From positions 496,001 to 560,000 of the forward strand of contig JAYWIR010000050.1 in the NCBI GenBank assembly GCA_036172245.1: 64,000 nt of DNA, in the 5' to 3' direction. The notes beneath the pieces were generated by a model. It searched no databases and had not been told where the DNA came from. It saw only the letters and a program-made list of their open reading frames with translations. The stretch comes from Raillietiella orientalis (Eukaryota). Both the position numbers and the translations under genes were made by a program. Of this stretch, positions 7,811-40,871 are shown piece by piece. Position 1 is the stretch's first letter, and each line of letters opens with the position of its first letter.

Positions 7811-10800
7811 CCACATGGTCTCCGACGCGGGCCAAAGGAAAAAAGAGGTGGACAAAGAAAAAACCGGGTCGGGGGAAGAAGGGAGCCACGAAGTTCTCCA
7901 TTGCAATCCGTTCCAGCAAGTTGAATTTGGCCTTGGGGGAATGGGCTGAGAGCCCAACTCAGCCCTCTGAAGGCAGTCCGGCCACTCGGCAGAGCCGAAC
8001 CAACGGAACAAGGCAACCTGAAATGACCCCCCCAGGCTGATTTAGTCGGACCTCCCGGGGATCGCGAGGGCTGCGCACCCGCACTACTCGAATGACCACG
8101 CTCTCGAGTCCTGTTGATGCTCCCGCCCGCTCTCCGGCAGATCAGCTCGAAAAAGTTCTCGAGCCTGGCCGCTGGGGTAAGCAGGGGCAACAGAGGAAGT
8201 GTCCCGTTCGCTGTTCGATGATGGGGATTTACCCCGAGGGCGAGGCGCGAGCTGGTGTGATCCCTTCGGGGTGAGGGATCCGGTGCCACTTCCTTCATCC
8301 GGGCCAGCGCTTCCGACGAGCGCGCAGAGGTGATGCACTCTACGCCCAGTCGTTCCTCTCCCACTTCCAGAATCCCCCCCGGGCCGCCTGGTTCTCTTCA
8401 ACAAATTCCTCGAGCCGCCGGACAGTCTCGCTCGCTCCGCTTTCATGACGTGCTGGTTCGAGATGGGGGCGGCACCTCACTGAGCGAGAACGTGCGAGGG
8501 AGCAGCAGTGCAGCTCGTCTCCTCCCGCGCCGTGCATGCGCGACAAATCCCGCGGCCAAGCTGTCCGCCGGAATCGCAAAAATGGCGGTGGGCTGCACGC
8601 ACCCGGAAGAAAAGAAAGCAGCGCGCATCCGAGGACAGCGAGTGGGGTTTACACCCGAGGGCGCGGACGGCGGCGATGCGGAATCGCTTCTCTCCCTGCA
8701 CCCATGGCGACGAGGACGCCCGGACGGCTTCCCCCGCGGGAACGGGACGATGGGAGAGCTCGCAGGCATTTACAACCAGGTGCGCCTGCGACCCTCCCCC
8801 CCCTCCCACCATCGCAGTGCTGCCTTTTTGTTCCCTGTTTGCTCGTCGGCCCGCTCCCGGTGCCAAGCCGCTGGGACTTGCGAGCCGGAATCTTGCCGCG
8901 CGTCACCGACTGTGGTCCTACGTGACCCGGGGCCTCCTTACGACGTATCTTTGCCACGCGCGCTTTTCAACGAGCGCCCCCTCGGGGCGACCGGCTGCAT
9001 GGCTTTGCACGCGCAACTCTCGAATTTGCACCGCTCGCGCACAAGGGGGAGGGAGTGAGGGAATTTGACTGTCCCACGGTAGTAAGTGACGCCGGACCGA
9101 CCTCCTCGCCTTTCGTTGGCTCCATAGGGGGAGAGACGTGGACACCCCCGTGTTTTTCTGGCTTCAGAGGCTGTGGCGCCTTCCCGTGAGCAGTGGACAC
9201 TCGCCCGCCGCGCTCTCGGGTCGCACCTCCCTCGAAGTCGCTCTGCCGACCGCCGCGCCGTGTGGCGGGCGCCAGGACAGGAGTCGCGAGAGCCGCGACA
9301 CCTCGACGCGGGGGAGGGAAACGCGCGGAGCCTCTTCCCGACATCCGGGACCTCCCCGACGGCTTCTTCCTCTCCCGAAGACGCTTAGGGTCACGTGTCC
9401 AAGGACCCTTACGGGACAAGACGGTACGCATTCGACGGGGCGCCGGTAACGCCCCACGGCGACATTCTTGCAGCACCGGCGGGTCCCCGGAACTGCGATC
9501 GAAGATCAGCGGCGCCGGAGGATGGTGGTCCGGTCTTGCCAGCGCCATCGCGCCGCATCGGTCCCACCTGCCGGGTGCCCGGCCGCAAGCCGGGAACGCT
9601 TGAAGGCGTCCAAGCGGCGCAGTCCTCGAGACATGATGCTGAGAAAGGGAGGGGGGAGGGCGTCACCCGCCCGCGCGAAAGACACGCGGCAGGAGATCAG
9701 GCAGTTTCGGAGCCACGCTGCCCGCGTTGGCGGCCGCGTGGCGCTCAAAACACTGCAGGTTCGAATCCCCATCGGAGGGGGGGAGGAGGCGAAGCTGAGA
9801 AAAGGAGTGCGTCAGTTACCCCCCTTCCCTTCCACCCTGCAGGACGACGCTGGTTGACCACGGGTGGCTTCGGGTGAAGCACTTGCGGGACCTGGAATGC
9901 CCCTGTTGGCTGGGGCCGGGATCGCCTCTCCGGGGTCCATCCAGGACATCAGGGAGCCCCTGTGAGGGCGTAGCCGGTTGACTCCTCTCCGGAGCGCTGG
10001 AGCCGCTCCCTTCGGGGTTCCCTGGGAGAAAGCTCCGGGAGCCTCTCCCTCGCGGGTACCTTCCGGGATTTCCCCACTGAGCGCCAAAGAGGAACGGACC
10101 CTCCTTCCTCCAAAGATTCCCTAGGTCTATCTCCCACCCCCCACCCTTAAAAACAGGGAGAAGAGGAAGAACAAGGGCGTGTTCGCTGTTCGGCGGTGCC
10201 CCGCATTTCCGACTCTCCCGCCGAGGCCGTCCGCTCTGAGGTCGGTCGGTCGGCAAACCCCGCCCTGCCCGCCCGTGACATCACCTCGCGCGCTGACGGG
10301 CTCATTAAAAATGAAAGATGATGCATGCGAAATCGGATGCAAATGGATTCGCGGGGCATCGTGGTCGCTCCTGGCGGCAGTTGCGGGGGGTCCACGCACC
10401 AGAATCCACCCCTTCCGCGAAAACTCGTCTCGTCGGCGCGGCGCAAGGGGTGTTGGGATGGGGGGTGGGGTGGGAGGGGCAGAGACACCTCCGGGCTGCT
10501 TCCCCGCTCGATCCACAGAGGCGTGGAGAGGACTACACAATCACTGCGCTCTCATCCAGCCTCCGAGGAGCCTCAGCTGCAGCAGTTTGCCCCACGGCAA
10601 GCCAGACATGTGCTCCGCTCCCCCTCGAAATGCGTGGGAGGGGGCACTGCCTCCGCAGTCGCAAGGAGGGAGACCTTCCAGTCCTCCAATAGGAGGCCAG
10701 GGATCCGGGCGTTCCCGGGTCGGAAAACAACCAGCGCGACATTTGACGTTGGCAACGCGTCCCCCCCTCTTCCCCCCCTTCATTGATTCCAGGGCTCCCC

Positions 10801-10968
10801 GAAGGTGAAGGAGGGAAGGGAACGCGCGCACGTGACCTTCCCGGAGTGGCTGATTTGCACACTCAACACGAAAAGGGAGTCCGTGTCTTTTGCGGAGGAG
10901 AGCGCAGGAGCGACCCCGGGGCTCGGGGGGGATGCAGCGCCACAGCCTGCAGGACCGCCGACCTGCGG

Positions 10969-10977
10969 TATTTATAA
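10969..10977 (+). promoter_or_regulatory. TATA-like box of gene A (TATTTATAA)
   Basis: The only AT-rich patch in a GC-rich context, ~70 nt upstream of the ATG; conserved at the same place in B and C. Confidence 0.65.
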
Positions 10978-11041
10978 CGCGCCTCCTCCGCCGATCGTCG
11001 GTCTCTTTCGCTCGTTGTGTCTCCCCGGTCGCGCACTGACG

Positions 11042-14000
11042 ATGCCGTCCTGCAGCCTCCCGTTGCGGTGGACCATTTTGCTGCTCGCCGCCGGCGCCAC
11101 GTAAGAGGGTTTGCCGCGCGCATCGCTTCCTTCTTGTACCTTCTGGCTGCCCTGCTGTCCGGCACGCCTGCGGGATCGCGCCTTCGTATCTTCCTCTCTC
11201 TCTCCCTCCCTCTCTCTCTCGCGCGCCTTCGTCCGCTGTGCCTTTCCGCAGAGGTTGCAGTGGGCAACGGGTGCTTCCCCGCTCTTGCCGATTCGCGGGC
11301 ACTGAAGCGCATGCGAGACGGACTGATCCTCGTGTGAGCAGGATCGGCGTCAGCCCGGCACAGGACAGCGAAAGGAACGTTCAGGCAGAACAACGCTTCC
11401 TGGACTGGTTGTTCTGTCCCATCAAAAAGTGGTGGTCTGGAGCAGTGACTACAATTCACCTGGAATATGAGGTACGATGCGAAATCTCTGTCGCTCTCCA
11501 CTGCTCTCGATCAAGGGAATCTGGACAAGCACGGTGTCCATAGGAACTCCTCGCAGGACATTTAGGGTCTCGTTCGATAGCACGATAGCAGCCATCTTGG
11601 TTCCTTCCAGCGCATGTGAAACTCCTCAGTGTGGTATGTACGTGCGCTGCACGCACGGAATGAGCCATCTTTCCTTGCCATCCCAGAGACGAAGGAGAGG
11701 TACTCCTCGAGCAATTCCACAACGTCCAAGTTCAATAAGACCCGAATGTTCACGGAAATATTTATGAAAAAAAAATTCTGGGGCTTCGAAGGATCGGATG
11801 ACGTCGAGGTTTGCTGTTTTCTCCTTTCTGTACAGGCTAAGCGCTCACCGAGGCGATGGCACAGTGGGCAACCAGTGCGATGACCTCTTTCAGCCGCCAT
11901 GCGCTCTCACAGGGAGGAGCAAAGTCCTCCTCGCTGGCTGCCGCCGTGTTTGGTCCACGTTGGACGGCAGATCCCCCCTTCCCCTTCCTGCTATGTCGCC
12001 CCCTCCGGATGCAGCCACGCCGGCGAAGAAGCGAACCGCTCAGGACGGCAAGCTGCGACATCTGCATCCAGGGCGCTGCCACGCTCTCGGGACGCAGGAC
12101 GCAGCCCTGGGCAGCCTCCCACGCGGCTTCATCTGCTCATCATCCTGCCTTTGGCAGGCGGTCCTTCCGCCCGCGCCTTCGTAGTGCCTCCAAGCAAGGC
12201 CGTCGCCCGCGTCCGTACGACCTGGCAGCTGCGTTTCTCTCGATCGCCAGCCGTGGCAGCTCCCTGCTGGCGCTGCGGCGACCGCTCCGTTCCGCCTCCA
12301 CAAACGCCATCGCGGAAGGAAGCGCCTGCTCGTTGCACGGCTACCGTCCACAGAAAGGGAATTTCGTTTTCCCGGAGATAGGCTGACGAGCGGAGGGCGC
12401 GCCACCCGTGGTCGCGGACGCGAAGATTGCGACCTCGAAAGTCGGCAGCGACCGCGAAGTCCAATCTCTTCGACGACGCGGGAGTCCACCTCCGGCAGTT
12501 GCAGTCCACCTCTCGGTGGCTCCTTCTCTCGCGGCGCCCCTCTGGAGGTCTCTGATTGGCTCCGTTGCAGTTCGGCAACTGCGGCGCAAAGACGGAAGGT
12601 GCCCTGCTCCATCCCTACCAGCAAGGGGAGCTTCCTCCGTGGTTCCGTGCAGACGGTGTATTCGGGATCGCCATGGTGCCCGGGCGCCACTCTTGGAGCT
12701 CGGCCATCCCCGCCTTCATGGAGCAGCGGCACGCCAACCAGTCGGCGTATCTGACGCTTTTGTTCGACAGGTTGTCGGATCGCTCAGGCGTCTTCTCATA
12801 ACCACCTCCAAAATGCTCTTCCAGGAAAGCAGAATCGGGGACCATGGTTCTAGGGACTCTCCCGCCGAACAGCCAAAGTTCCGTTACGCTCAAAAACCAG
12901 GATGAATTAAAACTGACTTGGGTGGTCACCATCGACAGGTAACGTGTCGCTTCCCTCGACACAGGTCACCCGGTGGCCCCAGGCTCTGCACACGCGAATT
13001 CGACCACCGTTCGGATTTCGGGAATTCCCCGCATCAGTCCTGACGGTGGACACAACGAGATGCACGAGCGCTCCGCCGACAGCCAGCCTGTGACTTCGAC
13101 TCTCTGTGTTCCTTCAAGGGATGGATTGCAGGTGTTTGGGGCGCAGCGGTCGAACGGCGACGACTCTCTTCGGACGAGCGAGCGATCGCTTCGTCCGCTC
13201 AGAGACGCCCACCCCGCAGCGAGCGCCGGCTGCAGGACTCCTCCGCGGCTGTGGTTATGCATCCACACACAAACTGATTGCACCACTCCCTCTCTCAACA
13301 GCGAGAAAAAAACACTCGAGAGTGAGCTGAGAGGACGGGGAGAGCGAAACATCTCATGGACTAAATCGCAGGAACGGGAAGGCGAACAGCCTGAGTGAAG
13401 GAAGGCGGAAGAAATTTCGATTGCGCATGTGCGCTCAGCGGACGAACGCAATGCTCCGAGAAGCGCTGTCCCGCACAGTCTGCTCTCCCTTCACCGCAAG
13501 AGAACCGCCCCTTCCTGGCAAACCAAGCAGGAAGCGGCGCGCCACTGTCCGCTCGATTCCTCAACGGGGAGGCGCATCCCAGGGGGGAGGAACACTCCCG
13601 CCTTCGGAACGCGAGATCCCTCCGCACGGTGAAGGACGAGCAGGGATGACGCTCCAGGAAAAATCCCGAACGTTCCCTTCAATTCCAGCCTGAAGGTCGG
13701 AGAAGAAGAATTTTGCAACAAGGGCTGCAGTGCCCTCGTGGACACCGGCCTGCCAGTCTCAAAGGCCACAACCCAGATGATGAAAAGCTTCATTGGCATC
13801 CGGGCGTACAAGGACGACGACGCGTACCAGAGCTCCCGCTACGAGGTAAGGCCCCAGGATGCAGTAGACCGTTGCTCTGAAACGGCCTCTGAAGGTTGAC
13901 TGCAAGAAGGAAAACCTGCCCACAGTGACCTACAAGATTGGCGGCTTGACCTTACAGGTCACCCCGGAGGAATACCTTTTACAGGCAAGAGGCCACAAGG

Positions 14001-14186
14001 CGCGCCGTTCGAGAGTGCCAACAAGAATTCCAGGATCCCATCCAGAAATCCTGCTCCCTGGCTTATTCCAATCACGTCCGGAGTCGAAAGAAGCACTCCC
14101 ACAGTCTATCCACAACTGTCCTGGAAAAGCTACAGACGACGCTCGACTTCCAGAACAACAGCATCATTTTCGCTCTCCGAGAGTGA
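11042..14186 (+). CDS. Secreted pepsin-fold (peptidase A1-like) protein, paralogue A; probably catalytically inactive; 9 exons, 380 aa
   Basis: Exons 11042-11100, 11342-11471, 11516-11633, 11687-11808, 12571-12770, 12825-12938, 13689-13845, 13895-13984, 14034-14186 splice into one open frame (1143 nt); all introns GT-AG except intron 8 (GC-AG). Signal peptide MPSCSLPLRWTILLLAAGA. Pepsin-like motifs: SIGTPRRTFRVSFDSTIAAILVPSSAC, DGVFGIA, FCNKGCSALVDTGL, VDC..LPTVTYKIGG..EEYLLQ, TTLDFQNNSIIFA. Confidence 0.88.
11828..12585 (+). repeat. Inverted repeat IR2, left copy (~0.76 kb; almost all of intron 4 of gene A)
   Basis: Reverse complement of ~37606-38363 (sum 50191), with a handful of substitutions. 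Confidence 0.93.
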
Positions 14187-14249
14187 CGTCACGATCGAAG
14201 CACGCACGGGCATTAAAGCGATGGCAGAGCATCGTGGCCGATGCGAGTG

Positions 14250-15300
14250 TCGTTTCCTTGCTGCCCCTCAGCGGGAGGGCCGCGGGTCTCCCCTTTCCAG
14301 GAATCGAGGGGAAGAAGCGGAGCGACCGCCTCCCCCCCCCCCTCCCGCCGGACGAAGGGAACGCCCGGAGAGCTCACACGGAGGCAGGCGAGCCACCGCA
14401 GCGCCTACTTCCGGGCGATTGCCTTCACGCCGGCACCGAGCAGGAGGGAACCAACGCGCGTCTGCGGGACATCGCCCGTCCCTCTCGAGGAACGGACCGG
14501 CATGCGTCTGACGGGAGCCAGAGGGCGACGGCACGGGCCGCAGGATCGGCGCTGCAGACAGCTGCTGCAGGGTCCGCAAGCGCCACGGCGCCAGCCGGAG
14601 CCGCGCATCGTTCCTTGGGCTCGGGGTGCCGAACTGGCACGCCCGCGACCTCTCCTCGGCAGGCGACTACAGGCTGCGGACGAAGCTCACACTTCCCATC
14701 GGCACGTTGCCTGGGAGATGGCAACCGGCATCCGAGAGGCAGGAGCCGAGTCGCCGCTCGGCTCGGTCGGACCGGGAAGCAGTGGGTGGACACGACGAGT
14801 CCGGGGGGCGAGGGGCTCGGCACCGATGCGCTCGGCTCCCTTCTTGCCCTTCTCCGCGCACGGAGCGCGCTCCGACGGGCCTCTGCAGCCCGGAAGGCGG
14901 GGGGCAGCGGAAGGCAGGGCGGCGCCCTCCGCCAGGCGGTGCGCGCGCGGAAAGAGGCGCCAACCCCACCACCTCTGCGTGTGCGCTCGCCCTGCCCGCG
15001 CCGTCCGCACCCGCCGGCCGGCCGCTCAGCCAGCCGCCCGGGCACGCCTCCCGCCGCCGGGGGTGGTCCCCGCAGCCGCGCTTGCGCGCCGCCGCCTAGG
15101 GCGCCCGTTGCTCGGCAACGAGCGCCGAGCGGGCGCGTGCGCAAGGCGAGCGGCGCGACGGCGCGGTCGGTCGGGCGAGCACTTGGAGCCGAGCGGCAGC
15201 CGCTGGCGAGATTCCCCCTACCGCCGTTCCCCCCTTGCCTCCCGTCGGAAAAGTGCACTTCCAGTGTTCTTCCGTTCGTGCACGTGCACGTGGTGAGTGC
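14250..15300 (+). promoter_or_regulatory. GC/CpG-rich putative ASZ1 promoter and 5'UTR exon (mirrored at ~34900-35950)
   Basis: Very CpG-dense stretch ending in donor GTGAGT at 15293, with acceptor TTCCCGTTGCAG ending at 15472 just before the ATG, suggesting a 5'UTR intron. Confidence 0.45.
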
Positions 15301-15477
15301 TTGGTGTGTGTGTTCAGCCCGCAGGCGGCGGCTTGCCGCAAGCAGCGTGCGCAAGTGCAGGCAGGCCACGACGGCTGGCCGCCTTCCCTGCTCTGAAGCA
15401 AGCAGTAACGCAAAAGTGGTCTTCCCAGGTCCCTATCGAATTCTGCCGATTCCTTGCGGCTTCCCGTTGCAGAAATC

Positions 15478-17756
15478 ATGCCGTCGAGAATCCGGCACGA
15501 GTCGGATTTCCACACGGATGAATCGGATGATTCGTTCGATGGAATGGTGATGGAGACTTCGGTTTCATCGCGCAAACGTAGGCAGGAGCCCTTGCTGAAA
15601 CGTTTCATGGAAGTAAGGATTTCAGGGGATTTGCTGGATGCGAGCACGTTGGGCGTGATTTTAATGCGTGCGGTTGAAAACGTGTGCTAGGAATGAGTGA
15701 CTTTTGCGTTTCACTTCCTCTGGAATGCCCCAGCTGCTTGCTGCCTGATTTCTGCAAGGTTTGTGTGACGGGCTTTGCATGATCGTGAGAATGTGCCGCT
15801 GCAAATGCGATGGAGTTCCTAACTGCGACCAAGCTGAAGGCTCGTTGTGCACTGTTCTCCTTCCTCACTGCTGGCAGTGCAGCCAAACCATCAGGCATTT
15901 TCATCCAGCATGGTAAGCCCCGTTTGCAGGCAGTGGAAATGTCTCTCTGCCCATCCTGGTTGGGAAGCACAGCCTTTCTGGCCTGCCAAGCAAGCATGTG
16001 CCCATTCGGCTCCTTTGTTGTGTATAAGCTGTTCTGGTTGGTGGCATGTGTGGGAACAAAGGTGTTTTGCCATGCAAATTGCTCGTTCCGTGAAAGAGTT
16101 GCTTCTTTGTGAACGGTGGCACTGAATTTAGGAACGCAGCTGGGAATGCCATTCGGTTCCATGCAAGGCATCAGTGCAGGCATTGCAGCCGAGGGCCACT
16201 TGTGGGAAGGCCAACCTTGCAGATGATCTCAAGAATGCAGTTTTGTCGAACGATGTGGATGCTGTGGAGAGAATTTTGAATTCAGGTGAAGTTGTGCCGC
16301 AGCATTTGCACCATTTTGTGAATCTGATGTAGAGGAGGGTAGCGCCAACTTGGTGCTGAAGGACGGGTGGTCTGGACTGATGTATGCATGCAGGAATGGC
16401 GTGCCGCTGCTGGTGGACAAGTTTCTGGCCAAAGGGGCGCACGTGAATTTTTCTGCAAGTAATCCGTGAAGTTGTTCTGTGTGGGACCCAAAGGAACTTG
16501 GAGTTCTCTTGCAGATGGGTTCACGCCTTTGATGGCCTGCTGCGCTGCTTCCCGATGCAGGGAAGAAACGTTGGTGTTGATTGTTTCTCGGTTGCTGGAA
16601 GCAGGTGCTGATCCTAATTGTCGAGACCAGTTTCTGGTCACTGCCCTCATGATGGCTGCTAAACAAGGCTACAGCTTAGTGATTGATGAGTTGGTTAGCA
16701 AAGGAGCAGACGTGAATGGCTGCGACAGCCAAGGCTTAACGGTGAGTGTGTAATGCTAGGGAGTGTGTGCATGGGACAGTTGGTTGGTAGGCTCTGTGCT
16801 GGGCAGCAAAATTCGGGCAAGGACAAGCCAGCCGCATGCTGTTGGATCTGGGAGCAGACCCGAACAAGATTAGCAAATTGGGACAGAAAGCTGCTGATCT
16901 TGCCATGGAAGGAGGACATGATACGGTAGGGGGAGGTGGCTGTGCTTGTTTGCTAAGATGCGCCTCAGCTTGCCTCAGTGATTGCAGGTTTGTCAGGATC
17001 TTCCACGGTGGCTTTGTGTGGTGGTGCAGATGGTTGCCAGAGCAAGTGAGAGTTTTCCAGCACGCCTTGCTGCCAATGCATGTTTTGCCTTCAGGTATTC
17101 GGAAATGGATATGGTGCTGTGCGGTCTGGGACTGCAGGAGCTGATGCCCAAGTTTGCCCATCACCAAGTCACTCTGGAGCAGTTCCTTACGCTGACAGAG
17201 GCGGACTTGGAGAAGGTGGGCGTTGCTAAAGTTGGGAACAGAAAGCAGCTGCTGGAAACGATCAAGACCATGCACAAGAAGGAGTGGGAAAGATCGAGCC
17301 TGTCAGATTTGCATCAGAGCGATTCGATCAGGTAGGTGGTGGGCAGCTGGTGGAGTGGGGGATATGGCTGGTGTTGGCAGCTGTCCTGAAGCTGTTGCTA
17401 TGATGGCGAACATTGCCAGGCATCTCCAGTTCATCATGACTACCATCAGCTACTTGCGAGTGCAGGTGGCTCAAAACCCGCAGATCTTGGAACGTGGCCA
17501 AGAGATGGCTCACATGAAGACACTCATGCAGCAGACAGATGCTGCCATCCAGAACAACCGGGACCTGCTGTCGGAACTGAGTCTGTTTTACAAGGATCTG
17601 AAAGACAGGGAGGACGACGTCCAATTCGAAGTAGCGGATGCCATCAGGCCTGCTGCGATTTCCTCGAGGTGGAAGCCTTTTTTCCTGAAGATCACGAGTC
17701 TGGGAATAGTGATCTTTGTGGCGCTAAGCGTAGGGCAGCGCGTTCGACAGACTTGA
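15478..17756 (+). CDS. ASZ1: Ankyrin repeat, SAM and bZIP-like domain protein (GASZ), copy 1; ~488 aa, 8 coding exons
   Basis: Exons 15478-15612 (donor least certain), 16132-16285, 16333-16458, 16515-16741, 16791-16925, 16969-17045, 17095-17331, 17381-17756 give one open frame. Order: acidic N-terminus (DESDDSFDG), ankyrin repeats (GWSGLMYAC, GFTPLMACC, VTALMMAAKQG, TALCWAAKFG), SAM (LCGLGLQELMPKF..VTLEQFLTLTEADLEKVGV..GNRKQLL), helical region, C-terminal hydrophobic tail anchor (FFLKITSLGIVIFVALSVG). This domain order is characteristic of ASZ1/GASZ. Confidence 0.88.
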
Positions 17757-19857
17757 AAGGGCACAACAGGCAGTTGTGGCGTGCATTAAAGACGGCGGGA
17801 GCTGTTCCGACTTGGAAGCAGCGAAGTTGTCGCGTGTGGCGTCGTCACGGGATCATCAAGCCGGGAGTGGACGCGGTGCATATTGGAAGGATCTCGGTGT
17901 GCACCATGGGGGCAAGGTGCACGCTCTGGGGAAGGGCGAAGGAACGGAGCTGTCGAGAAGGAAGAGCGAGCGAGGTGGTGGATGTAGCAGGCCAGGGGTG
18001 GCTGCCGAAGGGGCTTCGTTCCGTGCCCGTCCGCAAGCTGTTTGATGCGTTCCTCCTCCTGTAGGGGCGGGGTGCGTGGACGCCTGCGCACGTATCGGTA
18101 TGGTGTGCCGCCGGGTAAGAAGTGTTCTTCCTGTCCGAGTGGCAGGTCAAGTCAAGTGGGGCGGGTACGGAGACGCGTGCTTCTCCGTAGCAAACGTCGG
18201 GTCGCTGCTGCCGCGGTTTCGGCTCTATGGTGAAGGGAACGCGAATCGTACTTGTCGAATACCGTGTGTGGTGAAGTGTTTGCGCTGGTGTTGGCGTGGG
18301 CCTGCATGGGGTGCAGTGGAAGCACGTCAGTGTCACACGACGTCCTGGGTGTGCAGAAGAGCGAAAAATTAAAGGGTATAGAAGTGTCGCGGCACGAGTG
18401 CTTGAGTGGCGAAAAATGGGCTCCGCTCTCAGGGGAGCGTGGCTCCCTCCCGTCAATTGCAGTGTGCCGGTCGCTTGCATCGCTGGGAACCAACGACTTA
18501 CGAGTATGGTGATGGCTTCGTTTGAGGCAGGTGGTATCCTGCGTTCGTGCCCGCTGAATTGTGGGGAGGTTTTGGCCGAATTGGCGCTGGCGGCGACCCG
18601 TTTCGTGCTTGTCGCACTCCTGCCCCGTGTGGAAACCCAGGTTCGTCCAGGACACGGTAGCGTGGTGTTTGGTGTTTCAAACCTGCCGTGTCTGCACACG
18701 AATCTCAGTGGTTTCTGCTGGCTGGAGCGTTCGTGTTCCTCATGCGTCAATCCTGTTTCCTAACCTCGGGGCAAAGTTTCACATTGCATTGCGTCTTGAC
18801 GACGCCAGCTCTTGTCTGAGGGAGCGTCCTTGCTCAAGCGCAGTTCTCTTGCGCGTTCAGAGGTTTCGATGCCAACGTGGGTGCGCTGCCGGAAGCGGTG
18901 GCGCCCGGCACGCGCCTATTCCCTTGGTGTGCTGTGCGCGCTCTGGGATCGGCTGCGGAAATGTGCCTGGGCGTCACGCCTTCTGACCAGCGAGGTCCGC
19001 AGCGGTCCACCGAATGGCGTGTGCGTACGCGGGGCTCTTCTGTTTTGAATGCCTCCGAACACGTCTTCGTGAAGCGACCAACTGTTCGAGTGCCCTCCGT
19101 CACGTTTTGGTTCGTGACTTCGGAGGAGGAAGCGGGTGGGCAGGGTGGCTGTTGGCAGACCGTCTCATTTTTCGACTGGATGTCCGAATCTCAAATCATC
19201 TGTTTTCACTCTTGCACTCTGCTGCAAAGCTCCGCTGCCGACTTTTGAACTCAGTTGCATATCCTCGGTAACGACTGCTGCACTCAATTCCAATTCCTTA
19301 ACTTATGTTGAAGTCCATCGGGTTTCCAAAATGCCAGCAGGGTGGGGCATTTTGGGTTCCGTCTTCTTGCCATGGAAACCAATGTTTGAAATATAAAGTT
19401 TTCATTTATCTGAGATTCTTCATGTGGTCCTCCTAGGTATTGTTAGTATTGGATTCAAGACTGAATCGTAACAAATGGGGATGACGGTTATCTTTGGGTT
19501 AGGATTGGGAAGATGTTGTACGAACAAGGGACATATTTTGAGAATTACATTGAGGTTAGAGTTGATGATGTTGGGGAGGTTGGTGTCTTTTTTTTTTTTT
19601 TTTTGGTGGATTCAAGTGCGAGACTTAGCGAATATGAATTTTGATTATGATGGTGGTTAGCATTGGTGAAATGACTATAGGATGGTTAGGCGAGGTTATG
19701 GTAATGATTATTGTCGGTCTGTAAGTGCCATTGCTTGTTAAGATTAATGGTATTCTTATTGTTAAGGATGGTAGGTGTCAACAACGACGTAGGTCTTGCT
19801 CATGCCTTCTGGGAACCCAGGGACGCAGACTCTTTCTCGACGGATAACCGTTTACTA

Positions 19858-30880: not shown

Positions 30881-31151
30881 ATGAGTACACAAAGTTTTTT
30901 TTTTTTTTTTTTTACAGTCACCAGCACATGTACAGCCGTCAGCGGGAAGACAGGGAGAGCGAAACACAAGAGTTCCCTGCTTTCAGCACCTCAGGTTCCT
31001 GCTGAGACCATACAGAGGCAATCTGGCGACCTCAACGACCTCGTGCTCGGTACGTCTGCTGTGCCGGCCTACGACGACGATCTTCTGCTTGCGTTGTTCG
31101 CATCCACTCAGAGACATTGCTTGAGGGCTTTTCGAGTGGATCAGGCAAAGA

Positions 31152-32000
31152 ATTTTCACCCGGTCACACCAGGCCGTTTATTGTAAAAAGAAATCCCAAA
31201 GAACTATATTATTATATATGAAAATGTCTTCCTTCGCGGTGGCGGTTTGAAATCTCCTCCACGAAATGTAATGTCTCGGAGGCTCTGCTTTTTGTGAGCA
31301 GCCCTCCTGAACAAGAGAGTTGGGGGAAGGGGTGAACAAAAAGAAAAAACACACACGCATAAGTTTACCCTAAAAATGTGTTGGGACGGAAGGGATCGCA
31401 GATTTCTTCCTGGCACGCTCGGAATCTTCTGGAGGATGTGGGTAACTTCCTCCTTTTTTTTTTTTTTTTTCCTCCTTTAGTTGGCAGAGATTTGTCCATC
31501 TTGTCGTCTTCCTCATGAAGGAGCAGGTCAATTGGGATGAACTCGCGTCTAACTCAGAGTTCGACTGACCTCTTTCGGCGTGGCTTCTCGGCAGCACAAT
31601 CGCAAGGCAGCGCGGAGGTGCCCGCGACATCGAGTCGAGGCGAAGAAACGCCGCTCATCAGCAGTGAGAGTGCCGCATAGCAGCGTTCCCGGACACTCGC
31701 ACCAATCCAACAACAGGTACGCCATGGTTTCCCGTTCCCTGTACCCAGCGCATTCTGGAGCCGCACTCCCCCTCGTCCAAGGGTGGACTCGCGCGTTGTA
31801 TACGATAGTGCAACAACAGCAATGCAATAACTGCAAAACCAAGTCGGTGGGGAAGGAAGACGGACTTCAACAGCGCGTGGCTGCGCTCCATCACCTTTGT
31901 TGCGGCGTTCTGAGAACAATAGGACGAGATCCCTTTAGGAATCCCTAAGGAAGTGACACGAAGTACCTTGGCGATCAGCTCATCCGGGATTACTTCAAAA
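31152..32000 (-). mobile_element. Decayed non-LTR 3' fragment
   Basis: HPWTRGSAAPECAGYRERETMAYLLLDW and terminal hairpin 31153-31182. Confidence 0.65.
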
Positions 32001-32130
32001 CAGATCCCTCTGTGAGAACACCAATGCATCTCCTGCCTTCTCGCAAACAAGAACTCGTGACTCCTAGGTGGAGTAGCCACGGAAACGTGCGCAAGCGTCC
32101 ACGCATGCACGCGTCTCACGCAACGCCACA

Positions 32131-35100
32131 GCACCCCGCCCCTACAGGAGGAGGAACGCATCAAACAGCTTGCGGACGGGCACGGAACGAAGCCCCTTCG
32201 GCAGCCACCCCTGGCCTGCTACATCCACCACCTCGCTCGCTCTTCCTTCTCGACAGCTCCGTTCCTTCGCCCTTCCCCAGAGCGTGCACCTTGCCCCCAT
32301 GGTGCACACCGAGATCCTTCCAATATGCACCGCGTCCACTCCCGGCTTGATGATCCCGTGACGACGCCACACGCGACAACTTCGCTGCTTCCAAGTCGGA
32401 ACAGCTCCCGCCGTCTTTAATGCACGCCACAACTGCCTGTTGTGCCCTTTCAAGTCTGTCGAACGCGCTGCCCTACGCTTAGCGCCACAAAGATCACTAT
32501 TCCCAGACTCGTGATCTTCAGGAAAAAAGGCTTCCACCTCGAGGAAATCGCAGCAGGCCTGATGGCATCCGCTACTTCGAATTGGACGTCGTCCTCCCTG
32601 TCTTTCAGATCCTTGTAAAACAGACTCAGTTCCGACAGCAGGTCCCGGTTGTTCTGGATGGCAGCATCTGTCTGCTGCATGAGTGTCTTCATGTGAGCCA
32701 TCTCTTGGCCACGTTCCAAGATCTGCGGGTTTTGAGCCACCTGCACTCGCAAGTAGCTGATGGTAGTCATGATGAACTGGAGATGCCTGGCAATGTTCGC
32801 CATCATAGCAACAGCTTCAGGACAGCTGCCAACACCAGCCATATCCCCCACTCCACCAGCTGCCCACCACCTACCTGATCGAATCGCTCTGATGCAAATC
32901 TGACAGGCTCGATCTTTCCCACTCCTTCTTGTGCATGGTCTTGATCGTTTCCAGCAGCTGCTTTCTGTTCCCAACTTTAGCAACGCCCACCTTCTCCAAG
33001 TCCGCCTCTGTCAGCGTAAGGAACTGCTCCAGAGTGACTTGGTGATGGGCAAACTTGGGCATCAGCTCCTGCAGTCCCAGACCGCACAGCACCATATCCA
33101 TTTCCGAATACCTGAAGGCAAAACATGCATTGGCAGCAAGGCGTGCTGGAAAACTCTCACTTGCTCTGGCAACCATCTGCACCACCACACAAAGCCACCG
33201 TGGAAGATCCTGACAAACCTGCAATCACTGAGGCAAGCTGAGGCGCATCTTAGCAAACAAGCACAGCCACCTCCCCCTACCGTATCATGTCCTCCTTCCA
33301 TGGCAAGATCAGCAGCTTTCTGTCCCAATTTGCTAATCTTGTTCGGGTCTGCTCCCAGATCCAACAGCATGCGGCTGGCTTGTCCTTGCCCGAATTTTGC
33401 TGCCCAGCACAGAGCCTACCAACCAACTGTCCCATGCACACACTCCCTAGCATTACACACTCACCGTTAAGCCTTGGCTGTCGCAGCCATTCACGTCTGC
33501 TCCTTTGCTAACCAACTCATCAATCACTAAGCTGTAGCCTTGTTTAGCAGCCATCATGAGGGCAGTGACCAGAAACTGGTCTCGACAATTAGGATCAGCA
33601 CCTGCTTCCAGCAACCGAGAAACAATCAACACCAACGTTTCTTCCCTGCATCGGGAAGCAGCGCAGCAGGCCATCAAAGGCGTGAACCCATCTGCAAGAG
33701 AACTCCAAGTTCCTTTGGGTCCCACACAGAACAACTTCACGGATTACTTGCAGAAAAATTCACGTGCGCCCCTTTGGCCAGAAACTTGTCCACCAGCAGC
33801 GGCACGCCATTCCTGCATGCATACATCAGTCCAGACCACCCGTCCTTCAGCACCAAGTTGGCGCTACCCTCCTCTACATCAGATTCACAAAATGGTGCAA
33901 ATGCTGCGGCACAACTTCACCTGAATTCAAAATTCTCTCCACAGCATCCACATCGTTCGACAAAACTGCATTCTTGAGATCATCTGCAAGGTTGGCCTTC
34001 CCACAAGTGGCCCTCGGCTGCAATGCCTGCACTGATGCCTTGCATGGAACCGAATGGCATTCCCAGCTGCGTTCCTAAATTCAGTGCCACCGTTCACAAA
34101 GAAGCAACTCTTTCACGGAACGAGCAATTTGCATGGCAAAACACCTTTGTTCCCACACATGCCACCAACCAGAACAGCTTATACACAACAAAGGAGCCGA
34201 ATGGGCACATGCTTGCTTGGCAGGCCAGAAAGGCTGTGCTTCCCAACCAGGATGGGCAGAGAGACATTTCCACTGCCTGCAAACGGGGCTTACCATGCTG
34301 GATGAAAATGCCTGATGGTTTGGCTGCACTGCCAGCAGTGAGGAAGGAGAACAGTGCACAACGAGCCTTCAGCTTGGTCGCAGTTAGGAACTCCATCGCA
34401 TTTGCAGCGGCACATTCTCACGATCATGCAAAGCCCGTCACACAAACCTTGCAGAAATCAGGCAGCAAGCAGCTGGGGCATTCCAGAGGAAGTGAAACGC
34501 AAAAGTCACTCATTCCTAGCACACGTTTTCAACCGCACGCATTAAAATCACGCCCAACGTGCTCGCATCCAGCAAATCCCCTGAAATCCTTACTTCCATG
34601 AAACGTTTCAGCAAGGGCTCCTGCCTACGTTTGCGCGATGAAACCGAAGTCTCCATCACCATTCCATCGAACGAATCATCCGATTCATCCGTGTGGAAAT
34701 CCGACTCGTGCCGGATTCTCGACGGCATGATTTCTGCAACGGGAAGCCGCAAGGAATCGGCAGAATTCGATAGGGACCTGGGAAGACCACTTTTGCGTTA
34801 CTGCTTGCTTCAGAGCAGGGAAGGCGGCCAGCCGTCGTGACCTGCCTGCACTTGCGCACGCTGCTTGCGGCAAGCCGCCGCCTGCGGGCTGAACACACAC
34901 ACCAAGCACTCACCACGTGCACGTGCACGAACGGAAGAACACTGGAAGTGCACTTTTCCGACGGGAGGCAAGGGGGGAACGGCGGGAGGGGGAATCTCGC
35001 CAGCGGCTGCCGCTCGGCTCCAAGTGCTCGCCCGACCGACCGCGCCGTCGCGCCGCTCGCCTTGCGCACGCGCCCGCTCGGCGCTCGTTGCCGAGCAACG

Positions 35101-36026
35101 GGCGCCCTAGGCGGCGGCGCGCAAGCGCGGCTGCGGGGACCACCCCCGGCGGCGGGAGGCGTGCCCGGGCGGCTGGCTGAGCGGCCGGCCGGCGGGTGCG
35201 GACGGCGCGGGCAGGGCGAGCGCACACGCAGAGGTGGTGGGGTTGGCGCCTCTTTCCGCGCGCGCACCGCCTGGCGGAGGGCGCCGCCCTGCCTTCCGCT
35301 GCCCCCCGCCTTCCGGGCTGCAGAGGCCCGTCGGAGCGCGCTCCGTGCGCGGAGAAGGGCAAGAAGGGAGCCGAGCGCATCGGTGCCGAGCCCCTCGCCC
35401 CCCGGACTCGTCGTGTCCACCCACTGCTTCCCGGTCCGACCGAGCCGAGCGGCGACTCGGCTCCTGCCTCTCGGATGCCGGTTGCCATCTCCCAGGCAAC
35501 GTGCCGATGGGAAGTGTGAGCTTCGTCCGCAGCCTGTAGTCGCCTGCCGAGGAGAGGTCGCGGGCGTGCCAGTTCGGCACCCCGAGCCCAAGGAACGATG
35601 CGCGGCTCCGGCTGGCGCCGTGGCGCTTGCGGACCCTGCAGCAGCTGTCTGCAGCGCCGATCCTGCGGCCCGTGCCGTCGCCCTCTGGCTCCCGTCAGAC
35701 GCATGCCGGTCCGTTCCTCGAGAGGGACGGGCGATGTCCCGCAGACGCGCGTTGGTTCCCTCCTGCTCGGTGCCGGCGTGAAGGCAATCGCCCGGAAGTA
35801 GGCGCTGCGGTGGCTCGCCTGCCTCCGTGTGAGCTCTCCGGGCGTTCCCTTCGTCCGGCGGGAGGGGGGGGGGGAGGCGGTCGCTCCGCTTCTTCCCCTC
35901 GATTCCTGGAAAGGGGAGACCCGCGGCCCTCCCGCTGAGGGGCAGCAAGGAAACGACACTCGCATCGGCCACGATGCTCTGCCATCGCTTTAATGCCCGT
36001 GCGTGCTTCGATCGTGACGTCACTCT
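32131..36026 (-). repeat. Inverted repeat IR1, right arm
   Basis: Reverse complement of 14180-18075; mirrored ORF pairs in the ORF track. Confidence 0.95.
32450..34728 (-). CDS. ASZ1: GASZ copy 2, inverted duplicate of copy 1
   Basis: Position p maps to 50206-p; the ORF-track translations over the coding region are the same as copy 1 (e.g. 32450-32983, 32871-33224, 33453-33740). Confidence 0.88.
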
Positions 36027-39000
36027 TCGAAAGCGAAGATTATGCTGTTGTTCTGGTAGTCGAGCGTCGTCGTCTGCAGCTTCTCCAGGAAGGTCGTGGG
36101 TAGGCTGTGAAGGAACTGGAACTCGTTTCGAACTTGGTTCGAGTAGGCCAGTAGGCAGCGGTTGTGTTCGACACCCTAGAATGGGACATCCGAGGGTTCT
36201 GTGCTGACGTCTGCTCTGTGTCCTCTCACCTCAAGGAGATAGTCAGCCTGGTTGAGTTCAACCCTCAGGTTGCCGATCTGGTAGGCGATTGTGGGCAGGT
36301 CTTGCGTGTCGCAATCGATCTTGGAAACGCATGAAAATGGCAGCCAGCGGCGCTTTCTGAGAAATCTACCTCGAATGCGTGGTCCACGTTCTTCTGTGTG
36401 CCTTTGTAGTTCCTGAGGATGGCGTTTATCGCGGCGCTCGTGGTTTTTGCGATGGGCAATCCGGTGTCCACGACTGCGGGGCAGCCGTTTCTGCAATGTT
36501 CGACGCCTCCGATTTGCAGGCTGGAATGGGAGACAGGTCCTGAGGCGGTCCCCTGCTCTTCCTCCGACTTTCGTGACTGATAGAAGGAACGCCTTGAAGT
36601 CGACGGTGCTTCGGGTGGAATGGGGGCGGAATGCGCGCGCGCTTTCTGTTCATGAATTCCCATCGTCGGACGGAAGGTGGGCGATCCCTGGTTTTCCTCA
36701 GTTTGCAGAGGGAAGAATTTTCGGGATTGCCACGAACAAATGGCTGACGCGGGCAAAATGGTTTCGATCGACTTATTCTGCCCTGTTAGCGCGAATGGCC
36801 AAGGGCGACGGTTTCTCCCGGTTCAACAGGAAGACGCTGCCGACGCCATCTTGGGAAACTCAGTGCGGAGCGAGAGGCTGTTCCACACATAATAAAAACC
36901 GTACATGGAGGGGCGCTGTGAGATCGCAAGTGCGTCAAAGGAGGCTGCTGTCGTTTGCAACCTGCAGTCCGAGTGCAGCAATGACCTCGACATTGGCGGA
37001 CTGAGCCTCCAACGTGCGTGGAGAAAAAGGTCGCCTGTGATTTTGTTTCCGAGGAGATCGATGCTTCTTATGCATCGAAGGGCAAGAGAACACCCTGCGA
37101 CGCCTGGGAACCCCAGTTCACCGCCGGACTCATGGATGTCGGGAGATGCAGGAAGATGGGAGCGCGATCCTGTCAGCTGATTTCACCGGCATTCCCTTTC
37201 GTCGCTTTACTCGAGCGGCCACGTTCGACGGATCGATGGGAGAATATGTTACCTTGACAACCAAACGACCCAGAATGTGGAATCCTTGAACCTGTTCTGG
37301 ATCGTCACGGCATTCCCGCTCTGAGGAGGAGATCGGGACACAAGCACTTCCCCTGATTTGCTTTGCCTGAAAGATCAGTTGACAGTCTAATGGAGGTTAA
37401 GAACAAGATATTTGCAGGACCTTTGGAACGAGAAGGTCAGGTAAGTAGGTTTGCCGAGATGCTTCTCCATCAGGAAACTAAAGATGGGTGAAGAAAGGTT
37501 GTACTTTTTGTCCACCATGGCGATCCCGAGAACTCCATCTGCGTGGAACCAGGAAGGGAAATTTCCATAATGGAAGGCATGGATCAGGGCGCTTTCCGTC
37601 TTTGAACCGCAGTTGCCGAACTGCAACGGAGTCAATCAGAGACCCCCAGGGGGGCGCCGCGAGAGAAGGAGCCACCGAGAGGTGGACTGCAACTGCCGGA
37701 TGTGGACTCCCGCGTCGTCGAAGAGATTGGACTTCGCGGTCGCTGCCGACTTTCGAGGTCGCAATCTTCGCGTCCGCGACCACGGGTGGCGCGCCCTCCG
37801 CTCGTCAGCCTATCTCCGGGAAAACGAAATTCCCTTTCTGTGGACGGTAGCCGTGCAACGAGCAGGCGCTTCCTTCCGCGATGGCGTTTGTGGAGGCGGA
37901 ACGGAGCGGTCGCCGCAGCGCCAGCAGGGAGCTGCCACGGCTGGCGATCGAGAGAAACGCAGCTGCCAGGTCGTACGGACGCGGGCGACGGCCTTGCTTG
38001 GAGGCGCTACGAAGGCGCGGGCGGAAGGACCGCCTGCCAAAGGCAGGATGATGAGCAGATGAAGCCGCGTGGGAGGCTGCCCAGGGCTGCGTCCTGCGTC
38101 CCGAGAGCGTGGCAGCGCCCTGGATGCAGATGTCGCAGCTTGCCGTCCTGAGCGGTTCGCTTCTTCGCCGGCGTAGCTGCATCCGGAGGGGGCGACATAG
38201 CAGGAAGGGGAAGGGGGGATCTGCCGTCCAACGTGGACCAAACACGGCGGCAGCCAGCGAGGAGGACTTTGCTCCTCCCTGTGAGAGCGCATGGCGGCTG
38301 AAAGAGGTCATCGCACTGGTTGCCCACTGTGCCATCGCCTCGGTAAGCGCTTAGCCTGTACAGAAGGGTGGCATGGAGACAAACCTGCAGATCCGTCAGC
38401 CGTTCCACTCCCTGAAAGTTTTCGTAAAACAGCGAACGCTGACAGAATTTGCGATCGATCACCAGCTGGTCGCATTCCTCTTCAGCATATCTTTTGCTTT
38501 TCTCTTGAGAGCAGAGGGTTCGATTTGGCAGTAGATACGCGCATACCTACCACAGAAAGTACTGTAGCAGTAGATGGAGGGAACAACAATTGTCCCAAGG
38601 GTACTGTCCAAGGTGAGATGAAATTCTTCTTTGTTCGTTCCCAAGGATGCGACGGTGTAGTAAACTCCCTTGGAGAAGACGCATGAGAGTCTCTAGCAGT
38701 CTGCATTTTACCTCGTAGCGAAGCGGAATCTGGACGAGCGTTCCTGCCGACCGAACTCTCCAGGAACAGGAAGACCAACCGAACGCACGCTCGCTGATCT
38801 CATACAGCCACGAGTTCTCCTTTTCCAGGCTAACGCCGACCCTGCCCACACGAGGATCAGTTCCTCCCGCGCGAGCCCGAGCGCACGGGAATCGGCAGGA
38901 GCGGGCAAGCGCCCGTTGCCCACAGCAACCGCTGCGGAAAGGCACCAGCGGACGAGCGCGCGCACGCGTGCGAAAGAGAGAGAAGAAGATACGCACGGGA

Positions 39001-39147
39001 CACGCGCGAGCCTGCAGGCGCCGGGCAGCTGAGCGGCCGGATGACACAAGAAGGAAGCGATGTGGGCGTGCGCGGCGAACCCTCTTACGTGGCGCCGGCG
39101 GCGAGCAGCAAAATGATCCACCGCAACGGGAGGCTGCAGGACGGCAT
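36020..39147 (-). CDS. Secreted pepsin-fold protein, paralogue B; probably inactive; 9 exons, 378 aa
   Basis: Exons (minus) 39147-39089, 38841-38712, 38668-38551, 38503-38385, 37620-37421, 37366-37253, 36520-36370, 36319-36230, 36175-36020, all GT-AG, open frame of 1137 nt. Motifs YYTVASLGTNKEEFHLTLDSTLG, DGVLGIA, CRNGCPAVVDTGLP, IDC..LPTIAYQIG, TTLDYQNNSIIFA. Confidence 0.88.
37606..38363 (-). repeat. Inverted repeat IR2, right copy (intron 4 of gene B)
   Basis: Mirror of 11828-12585 (ORFs 11856-12386 and 37805-38335 differ by one residue). Confidence 0.93.
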
Positions 39148-40871
39148 CGTCAGCGCGCGACAGGGGAGGCACAACGAGCGAAAGAGACCGCCGGTGGCGG
39201 AGAAGGCGCGCTATAAATACCGCGGACCGGTGGCCCTGCAGGCAGCGCTGCAGCTTCCTAGACCCCCGAGCGCGCCTCCACGGAAGGCCGGGACTCTTCG
39301 TGCGAACCAGCCATTTCGGGAGAGCCGTGCGTGCGCGCCACCTTCCCCCCGCACCGGAGAGGGCGCGCCGGTGCCGGGATGTCGTTGCCGGGACGCGGGG
39401 AGGGCTGGCAGATGGAGACATCCGTGTCACGAGCCCTCCGACCCGCCACCTGCGCCAGGAACGCTCCAAGGACACCGCCAAGCTGCAGGGAAGACTCTGA
39501 GGAGGCGGGGTGCAGCGCGGAGGCTGCGGAGGTGCCCCCCCCCCCTGAGGTGCAGAAGAGGCGGTCGAGCCGATTGGCTCCTGCTCGCGCAGGCACCGCG
39601 GACGACCTAGGGAGCGGAGTGGCGCCCCGCTCGAGGCGCCACCCACCAGGGGCGGGGTCGGGTCGCGACCCGAAGCAGGACAGGTGTGGCTGTGCGGGGG
39701 GGGGGGAAGGGGGGACGTCCTTCCTTCCTTCTCGGATGGGAAAGTGGAGATGAAAGGAAAAGGAACAGGCCCCCTATCGCCCCAGCCGGCCTCCCCGAGG
39801 AAAAGCCCTCCTGGGGAACTCTCCCGTCGACCCCCGTCCGCCGTCTGCCTCCCCACCTGCGTACGGAGGGGGTGCGGACGAGCCGATCGCCTCCTCCTCT
39901 CCCGCTGCTTCTCTCTCCGGAGCAGGCGCGCCCGGGAGCCTCACCGAGGGACCGCCTGCTCGAGCCACGCCTGCGGCCATTCCGCCGCCTCGACCTCCAC
40001 TCCCCGGCGAGTAACGGACCGCCTTTCTCCAGGCGTCATCCGCTTCCAGGGATAGGCGCGCGCCTCCTCCGGCCCCTCCTCTTCCCAGCTCGAGAGCGGG
40101 TGGTGGCGCTGCGGAAGCGTGGCCAGGGCGCTCCGCGCCCCTCCGCCCGTTCCGGGTGAGGAGCGGAGTGACCGCGGCCGACGGCCGTCTCCGGCGGGAG
40201 AGGGGGCGGTGCTCTCTGAGTCGTCGACGGACGCCCTCGAGCTCGAGGGCGACTATTGGTCCTGCGCCCCGGCAACAGCTGCATCCCCACGCGTCCTCCT
40301 TCCGAGCGACTGCTCCCGGGAATGGGCGCGCGTGCCGTCGCACGCGACGCAACCAACTCGAGTGCGGGGCGCCGCCTCCGGCGGGCTACCACTCGCGTGC
40401 GCCAAACGCCTTGGCATGACACGCGCCCGAGTCGGGGGAGTCGACGCGCGTGGTGGCACCGCCATCGACACGAAACGGGGGAGGGGGCACTCTTGGCCAG
40501 CCGGGCTTCTCGGCTGCCGATGGCGTTGCCTGCGGCACCTGCCGGGGTCGACCCGCGTCCAGCGGAAGTTCTTTCAGGGAGAAGGTCTGGGACATTCTTG
40601 AGCGCGCCCGCTCGAGGGCCCCGGGTCTCGTCGGCGGAATGGGCAGGCATCGCTCTCTGGCCGGCAGGAGGGCATCGCCTCTCCGCCTGCCTGACGAAGC
40701 TCCGTGTAAGCGAGCAGAGAGCCTCGAGCGGACGATCGCCGCGCCCACCGTCCTCGTCGTCGGTCGTCCCCTTCGGAATGGGCGGCGAGGGAGAGCACGG
40801 TGGACCTCGTGGCGAGCGGCGTGCGGAGCTTCGCAGGGAGGCGCCACTTTCAACCGCTGCTGGACCTGCAG
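38841..40871 (-). repeat. Inverted repeat IR3, left arm (~2.0 kb): upstream region, exon 1 and intron 1 of gene B
   Basis: Reverse complement of 45629-47660 (sum 86500/86501); about three differences seen, including a G-run length change. Confidence 0.95.
39212..39219 (-). promoter_or_regulatory. TATA-like box of gene B (TATTTATA)
   Basis: Homologous position upstream of ATG 39147. Confidence 0.65.

Follow-up and report, generated by a model that had tools for sequence, protein, structure and literature searches.

In the primate red and green opsin genes, which undergo gene conversion, divergence peaks at those exon sites that are under selection (Teshima & Innan 2008, reviewed in PMC3924837), and RHD/RHCE, protocadherin and CEACAM are further cases in the same class of islands of divergence (PMC3924837 / related literature). 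Large sex-chromosome palindromes are defined by arms of >10 kb (10.1101/800185). Here we analyzed a stretch of 64,000 nucleotides (nt) from Raillietiella orientalis (GenBank assembly GCA_036172245.1, contig JAYWIR010000050.1, positions 496,001 to 560,000 of the forward strand), which we call the window and whose first letter is position 1. It contains three pepsin-like genes, A, B and C, and two copies of an ASZ1-like gene, which lie in inverted repeats. We found that three discrete tracts, T1, T2 and T3, are near-identical between gene copies that are otherwise diverged to saturation. An initial annotation of this DNA had described a single palindrome containing A, B and the two ASZ1-like genes. 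The cluster proved to be larger and patchier than this, as gene C and a second palindrome lie outside the coordinates given in that annotation.

Inverted arms and near-identical tracts

Self-comparison of the window showed that positions 10921-18079 and 32126-39271 are mirror images of each other flanking a unique 14-kb spacer. Each of these arms contains an intact nine-exon pepsin-like gene (A or B) and then an intact seven-exon ASZ1-like gene (Table 1). Because canonical splice sites and intact open reading frames (ORFs) are found in all five genes of the cluster, these appear to be real genes rather than debris. The self-comparison returned three inverted pairs: 14100-18079 / 36109-32126 (3,984 nt, 99.5% identity, E = 0), 11823-12678 / 38368-37513 (856 nt, 96.4%, gapless) and 10921-11365 / 39271-38818 (80% identity). 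The mirror axis proposed in the initial annotation was reproduced by the position sums of the ATG codons (11042 + 39147 = 50189), of intron 4 (11823 + 38368 = 50191) and of the repeat it called IR1 (14135 + 36071 = 50206). The second palindrome is formed by B and C, and pairs 38841-40871 with 47660-45629 (2,032 nt, 99.85% identical). Orientation alternates along the cluster, with A forward, B reverse and C forward, so that B and C are head-to-head. The inverted repeats are real and far beyond what chance would produce. Outside the arms, a diverged inverted match between the regions upstream of A and upstream of B indicates that the old inverted duplication exceeded the present arms.

Table 1. 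Coordinates of the genes, motifs, tracts and related features in the window (aa, amino acids)
Feature	Position	Strand	Description
Pepsin-like (A1 family) gene A	11042-14186	+	9 exons, intact 380-aa ORF; three-way paralogue alignment and splice sites
Pepsin-like gene B	36020-39147	-	9 exons, intact 378-aa ORF; alignment and splice sites
Pepsin-like gene C	47354-50982	+	9 exons, intact 370-aa ORF; absent from the initial annotation
DST motif, exon 3 of A	11576-11584		approximate
DST motif, exon 3 of B	38600-38608		approximate
DST motif, exon 3 of C	47895-47903		approximate
ASZ1-like gene, left copy	15478-17756	+	7 exons, 479 aa; all GT-AG; same strand as and downstream of A
ASZ1-like gene, right copy	about 32450-34728	-	inside right copy of T1; coding sequence identical to left copy
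T1, left copy	14180-18072	+	last sense codon of A, GC-rich intergenic sequence, whole ASZ1-like gene, to ~265 nt past AATAAA
T1, right copy	32134-36026	-	mirrored, sum 50206; holds right ASZ1-like copy
T2, left copy	11826-12584	+	intron 4 of A minus first 17 nt, plus first 14 nt of exon 5
T2, right copy	37607-38365	-	intron 4 of B
T3, B-side copy	38841-40871	-	~1.7 kb upstream of B, exon 1 (signal peptide), all of intron 1
T3, C-side copy	45629-47660	+	counterpart at gene C
Old diverged inverted homology	7259-7806 vs 41969-41336		upstream of A vs upstream of B; 70-76% identity; self-comparison
Spacer of the A/B palindrome (P1)	18080-32125	none	unique, 14 kb; rich in repeat copies; 399-aa ORF

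To characterize divergence across the cluster, we made global alignments segment by segment, calculated identity per column, and used shuffled sequences as controls. Nucleotide identity in exons 2-9 is 60-76% for A/B, 56-68% for B/C and 58-72% for A/C, and introns 2, 3, 5, 6, 7 and 8 are close to the shuffled level in all three pairs. Intron 6, for instance, reaches 51.7% per column in the A/B alignment, versus 47.6% when shuffled. Of the eight introns, only intron 4 (98.3%) and intron 1 (82%) are similar in the A/B alignment; the other six are at or near the shuffled level. When intron 4 is compared with that of C, identity (40.9%) is equal to that of the shuffled control (40.9%). The codon alignments gave a similar picture. 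Amino acid identity and the proportions of synonymous (pS) and nonsynonymous (pN) differences are 44%, 0.55 and 0.37 for A/B (373 codons), 38%, 0.59 and 0.42 for B/C (362 codons), and 37%, 0.59 and 0.44 for A/C (360 codons). Nei-Gojobori ratios of nonsynonymous to synonymous rates (dN/dS) are 0.52-0.57, values that are unreliable given that pS, at 0.55-0.59, is near saturation. No exon is clearly above a dN/dS of 1, the highest being exon 7 in A/B (pN 0.41, pS 0.41). On these alignments, A, B and C are ancient paralogues with recent near-identical overlays.

The overlays are the three tracts. Base-by-base alignment of T1 showed two mismatches in 3,893 nt, at 15220 and 15366 (99.95% identity). 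Between A and B, T2 has seven mismatches in 759 nt, of which four fall within the last 95 nt before exon 5, as would be expected if the edges of a tract erode. The lower BLAST figure for intron 4 (96.4%) arises because that match runs ~95 nt into the diverged exon 5. Across the 2,032 nt of T3, B and C differ at three places, two of them substitutions and the third a 1-nt indel. The 5' module of gene A is 80-84% identical to those of B and C, and its exon 1 98.3%. Divergence is therefore graded, from 0.05% in T1 through 0.15% in T3 and 0.9% in T2 to ~18% in the 5' module of A versus B and C. The tracts also differ in the genes they pair, as T1 and T2 link A with B and T3 links B with C. An ATTAAA motif 26 nt after the protease stop codon falls inside T1, so A and B probably share their 3' ends, much as B and C share a promoter and signal peptide.

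We found that the tracts end at or close to the edges of exons. T1 starts at 14180, with the last sense codon ahead of the stop codon (14184-14186) in A, and at the equivalent point in B. T2 begins inside intron 4, 18 nt beyond the donor of exon 4, and takes in the first 13-14 nt of exon 5, a stretch of that exon that is conserved in C also. The inner end of T3 is the first base of exon 2; past it, B and C are unrelated. Each of the four intragenic ends is thus close to an exon edge, at distances of 0, 6, 13 and 18 nt (6, 18 and 13 nt for the A/B tracts alone). Only 19-22% of the positions in gene A are within 17-20 nt of an exon edge, and the chance of finding all four ends so placed is ~0.002 by our own arithmetic, which takes ~0.2 per end and assumes independence. 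The outer ends are intergenic. T1 continues beyond the ASZ1 stop codon and the AATAAA after it, and its end is marked by a 28-nt indel and ~25 nt of decaying similarity; T3 meets unique sequence at 40871/45629. On the C side, a 29-nt tandem repeat (2.5 copies; 45493-45566) lies ~60 nt beyond this distal end of T3.

These alignments bear out much of what the initial annotation had claimed about the A/B pair. Its count of two mismatches from the protease stop codon through ASZ1 is exact; its figure of ~99% identity for intron 4 is right for the tract itself; and the strong divergence of exons 2-9, the barely alignable intron 6, and the placement of the ends at or within ~20 nt of coding boundaries were all recovered, with changes in identity that do coincide with exon edges. 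What was overstated is the general homogenization of non-coding sequence, as only three patches are alike and most A/B introns are not.

Possible origins of the tracts

We consider it probable, if well short of certain, that this pattern was produced by non-allelic gene conversion that acted in episodes between the inverted paralogues, and only within islands of surviving homology that are bounded by hyper-diverged exons. The starting point would have been three old, diverged paralogues in alternating orientation, with A and B each followed by an ASZ1-like gene. Three discrete tracts would then have been overwritten by recent non-allelic conversion among these inverted genes. For the A/B pair these are T1, with the protease 3' end, the intergenic sequence and ASZ1, and T2, with intron 4; for the B/C pair it is T3, with the promoter, the exon of the signal peptide and intron 1. 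If conversion can initiate and spread only where the copies remain alike, the islands of identity would be maintained, and they would stop abruptly at exon blocks that diverged long ago, perhaps initially because selection favoured proteins that differ. Recombination would no longer reach intron 6, the exons or the short introns that separate them, and all of these would continue to diverge.

Several results are consistent with this hypothesis. Near-identical tracts between paralogues that are otherwise saturated point to recent non-reciprocal transfer rather than to the age of the duplication. Because T1 and T2 pair A with B, T3 pairs B with C, and intron 4 of C is unrelated to the other two, no single duplication date would fit, and the cluster is better described as a mosaic of transfers. 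The differing divergences of the tracts suggest that these events took place at different times. The saturation of both synonymous sites and short introns fits the account in which a lack of homology stops conversion: exon blocks too dissimilar to recombine would act as a mechanical barrier, which would explain the sharp ends without ongoing selection. Selection may still account for the initial divergence of the exons. We therefore infer that the mechanism is conversion, that the sharp ends are caused by a homology barrier, and that events recurred over time. The arm-to-arm conversion claimed in the initial annotation holds up as recent transfer between saturated paralogues, and fails as a uniformity of whole arms or of their non-coding sequence.

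Some considerations weigh against the conversion hypothesis. It is drawn from one sequence only, with predicted gene models. T1 and T3 could each be explained as a single recent duplicative transfer, rather than as the conversion of copies that already existed. A homology barrier and selection against exon conversion predict the same static pattern. Intron 4 was homogenized but intron 6, which is of the same size, was not, a difference that the hypothesis explains only by chance. Finally, no clear signature of GC-biased conversion was found: GC content is barely raised in the converted tracts (0.65 in intron 4 versus 0.56-0.61 in intron 6), a comparison that is confounded by promoter-like sequence.

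The initial annotation had proposed that arm-to-arm conversion keeps ASZ1 and the non-coding sequence uniform, while selection removes conversions that would erase protease differences. On such a model, conversion would run along whole arms and purifying or diversifying selection would remove every conversion that enters a protease exon, as has been proposed for the primate red and green opsins. The coincidence of all four intragenic ends with exon edges would be expected in this case, and the proteins are so different (37-44% identity), with all three ORFs intact, that the differences probably matter for function, an argument that is well established in the opsins (PMC3924837). We nonetheless consider this explanation unlikely. 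In the opsins only a few selected sites differ, whereas here synonymous sites and short introns are saturated too. Moreover, exon blocks that are 56-76% identical provide no substrate for homologous recombination, which would leave selection with nothing to remove, and dN/dS, at about 0.5, clearly exceeds 1 in no exon. Selection that purges exon conversions is thus neither shown nor needed. Alternatively, there may have been no long-term conversion at all. In this scenario, T1 and T3 would be single recent inverted segmental duplications, made for example by replication template switching at microhomology. Gene B would have gained its downstream ASZ1 copy in this way, and B or C its 5' module, and insertions that disrupted a protease ORF would have been lost. 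The knife-sharp ends of both tracts suit this scenario, as at either end of T3 a single base separates 99.85% identity from unrelated sequence. So does the absence of ASZ1 after gene C and of any other ASZ1 fragment or remnant anywhere in the window, and so does the lack of arm-to-arm similarity past the inner ends of T1 (local score 13, versus a shuffled mean of 13.3). It would, however, require that three separate events each hit the matching site in a paralogue (the same intron, the same exon edge, the codon just ahead of the stop in both genes), for which conversion guided by homology is the simpler explanation. T2 is an internal island of 759 nt that leaves no room for a duplicative insertion, and a gradation of divergence from 0.05% to 18% is consistent with exchange that recurred. 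On balance, we regard single duplications as decidedly improbable.

Inverted repeats of >99.9% identity are a classic trouble spot for assemblers, and copies that were collapsed or homogenized during assembly or polishing would in truth differ more than they appear to. An artefact of this kind is very improbable, and is an unlikely source of the overall structure: the arms hold saturated and independently intact genes around a 14-kb unique spacer and cannot as a whole be a fold-back, and the tracts retain two (T1), seven (T2) and three (T3) private differences and end at exon edges, which polishing errors need not respect. A more local proposal concerns T2, which might be alike because the same transposon sits in both genes, or because it is a constrained element such as a non-coding RNA or an enhancer. 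Intron 4 is indeed one of just two long introns, most of the others measuring 43-56 nt. The transposon version was rejected for the lack of terminal inverted repeats at the ends of T2 and of any third copy in the 64-kb window. T2 is also placed and oriented alike in A and B, and crosses the acceptor into exon 5. As for a constrained element, a scan of the whole window with Rfam gave 0 matches at gathering thresholds, and constraint cannot yield 99% identity over 759 nt while neutral sites are saturated. We therefore find either version scarcely credible. Lastly, the patches could be kept by selection for shared regulation, with identical cassettes (the promoter, signal-peptide exon and intron 1 in B/C; the 3' end, poly(A) signal, CpG-rich promoter and ASZ1 in A/B) maintained for very long periods while the mature-protein exons of probably non-catalytic homologues diversify. 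We think this quite unlikely; if true, the cluster would be a modular family with a constant frame and a variable body, physically coupled to a duplicated germline gene.

Genes of the cluster and the remainder of the window

The models of A, B and C are predictions that combine the three-way paralogue alignment with splice-site checks. All of their junctions are GT-AG except intron 8 of A, and the intron phases are the same in all three genes. That exception is a GC donor (CAG followed by GCAAGA, at 13985-13990), where B and C have GT. Matches to PF00026 at E <= 1 were found in 5 of the 24 exon translations of A, B and C, in the order of the profile. Those in gene A, which are part of the evidence for its model, are in exons 3, 7 and 8, and only exon 3 of gene A clears the curated cut-off alone (21.0 versus 19.9 bits). 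A profile of the three exon-3 translations matched 75 PDB sequences at E <= 1; the best was cathepsin D (4.3e-7), and the best 60 of the 75 are all A1 peptidases. For the exon-7 profile, 30 of 31 PDB matches are A1 peptidases, with cathepsin E the best (0.001). The exon-5 profile matched no A1 protein among PDB sequences.

The first catalytic motif in A, B and C is D-S-T (invariant D21 S22 T23) instead of the D-T-G of the family, while the second D-T-G motif is retained in all three. The genes thus match the PF00026 profile but do not have the two Asp-Thr/Ser-Gly motifs of the family. Because the first motif is DST and not DTG, the catalytic activity of A, B and C is doubtful, and from their sequences we regard them as divergent homologues of the pepsin family (A1, MEROPS A1, Pfam PF00026) of doubtful catalytic competence. 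These DST-type homologues may act in binding rather than in catalysis. Among A1 proteins, altered motifs accompany a lack of activity in cockroach Bla g 2 and in some pregnancy-associated glycoproteins, a point for which our literature search gave no confirmation. No further protease fragment was found in the window with tblastn. One weak protease-like match near the centre of the palindrome (25008-25520; E = 0.011, 21% identity) was judged to be noise once the alignment was inspected.

The ASZ1-like gene was recognized from successive ORFs on one strand that match first ankyrin repeats (PF00023, E = 1.6e-13) and then SAM_1 (PF00536, E = 2.7e-11), and that are followed by a hydrophobic C-terminal stretch or tail in the translation of 17196-17753. 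This order of ankyrin repeats, SAM domain and C-terminal hydrophobic anchor is that of ASZ1/GASZ (ankyrin repeat, SAM and basic leucine zipper domain-containing protein 1), from which the present locus differs in having two identical inverted copies. The N-terminus is poorly conserved, and the predicted exon 5-6 junction was picked among several in-frame alternatives. In a representative protein library, the SAM-exon ORF has 239 relatives at E <= 0.001. Twelve of these, taken from the 150 matches listed, were compared back to the window with tblastn. The best, P0142, aligned over residues 124-505 of 553 in five collinear pieces at 40-58.5% identity. The protein-atlas clusters nearest to P0142 are named ASZ1 (score 0.98, 717 members, mostly Chordata), so the family name is assigned indirectly, through these neighbouring clusters. 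In a word-index protein search, the C-terminal exon had no word-sharing relative at E <= 10, and the search with the ankyrin exon was uninformative, as it was swamped by generic ankyrin proteins. Both mismatches in T1 are upstream of the ASZ1 start codon, and the two copies therefore encode the same protein. ASZ1 belongs to a gene family with a role in the germline, where ASZ1/GASZ acts in the piRNA pathway at the surface of mitochondria. We also observed a strong excess of G over C on the + strand at 16001-20000 (skew of 0.25 and 0.16 in 2-kb bins), mirrored at 32001-34000 (-0.24), which coincides with the body of the ASZ1-like gene.

Diverged inverted copies of a repeat family (58-68%) fill much of the spacer, at 19946-21613, 22525-23366, 25399-25981 and 28308-29769. 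Two pairs of matches lie near the axis of the palindrome (sums 49768 and 49885): 20799-21613 versus 28308-29086 (58%), and 19999-20191 versus 29572-29769 (65%). Such pairs might be what is left of an old palindrome of greater extent, and not copies of a transposon. We set this idea aside, however, as the left region also matches 22525-23366 and 25399-25981, which is the behaviour of a repeat family. The spacer also contains an ORF of 399 aa (22049-23245, + strand) that weakly matches zf-RVT (PF13966, a reverse-transcriptase zinc finger) and is probably the remnant of a retroelement; it has no relatives in the word-index protein search. An inverted pair that is 79% identical, 24557-24820 / 61470-61739, connects the spacer with the right end of the window and is probably a dispersed repeat. 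In the flanks, a Pfam scan of the long ORFs found only this weak zf-RVT match and a Borealin exon. The latter is an ORF at 2458-2733 (+ strand) with a weak match to Borealin (CDCA8, PF10512; E = 8.4e-4, just above the curated cut-off), in a part of the window, its left end, that is AT-richer (40% GC).

The observed/expected ratio of CpG in the window is 0.90 at 56.6% GC, and introns are mostly 43-62 nt long (six of eight in each protease gene, five of six in the ASZ1-like gene). By these measures, the window looks like part of an unmethylated genome with short introns, unlike those of vertebrates. The relatives of the ASZ1-like gene nevertheless fall in clusters dominated by chordates.

Comparison with known systems

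The pattern described here belongs to a known class, that of interlocus gene conversion with islands of divergence, and requires no new mechanism. As outlined in PMC3924837, the opsins share with this locus an exchange of sequence between linked paralogues in which introns are alike, exon differences persist, and coding sequence shows sharp peaks of divergence. Here, low and high divergence also stand side by side, as the tracts are 99.1-99.95% identical and exons 2-9 are 56-76% identical. The highly diverged side is coding sequence at each of the four intragenic ends, though six introns have diverged as well. There are, however, differences. The opsin copies are young and near-identical overall, with few exon sites that resist conversion, whereas the copies here are saturated apart from three islands. 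The divergence here extends to synonymous sites and to most introns, so a homology barrier suffices. Finally, the present copies are inverted, while the opsins are in tandem. The difference from the rest of the class is likewise one of degree, between copies that are usually alike with a few resistant sites and, in this case, saturated copies with a few converted islands. The same may be said of families that have escaped concerted evolution. The ruminant CEACAM1 (PMC7042247) and Tigriopus GOT1 (PMC3728101) paralogues have islands of divergence beside converted segments, as here, and are far less diverged overall.

If conversion was indeed confined in the way we propose, the cluster would be an unusually clean natural case of it, with three tracts and four intragenic ends that all fall within 18 nt of an exon edge. 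Combined with orthologous loci or population data, such a locus could help to separate selection against conversion from a homology barrier, two explanations that are usually confounded. The cluster also documents an ASZ1-like gene of a germline pathway as two identical inverted copies, and a small family of pepsin homologues with a DST motif.

Among the 15 literature matches listed, of 591, we found no paper that links ASZ1 to a palindrome. The initial annotation had likened the locus to the palindromes of the mammalian Y chromosome, and the comparison is apt for one part of the arms. Like those palindromes, this one has an arm with a gene from a family that functions in the germline. Its arms are inverted around a unique spacer and are >99.9% identical in T1 (99.95% over 3,893 nt), which is the arrangement reported for human Y P1-P8 and for the X, where such identity is attributed to conversion from arm to arm (PMC8600007, PMC3723533 and 10.1101/800185). 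The resemblance does not extend to the rest of the arms or to their size. The near-identical part is 3.9 kb and the whole arm 7.2 kb, half of it saturated, compared with the >10 kb by which the large sex-chromosome palindromes are defined in 10.1101/800185. The likeness to the mammalian palindromes is thus confined to the 3.9-kb ASZ1 tract.

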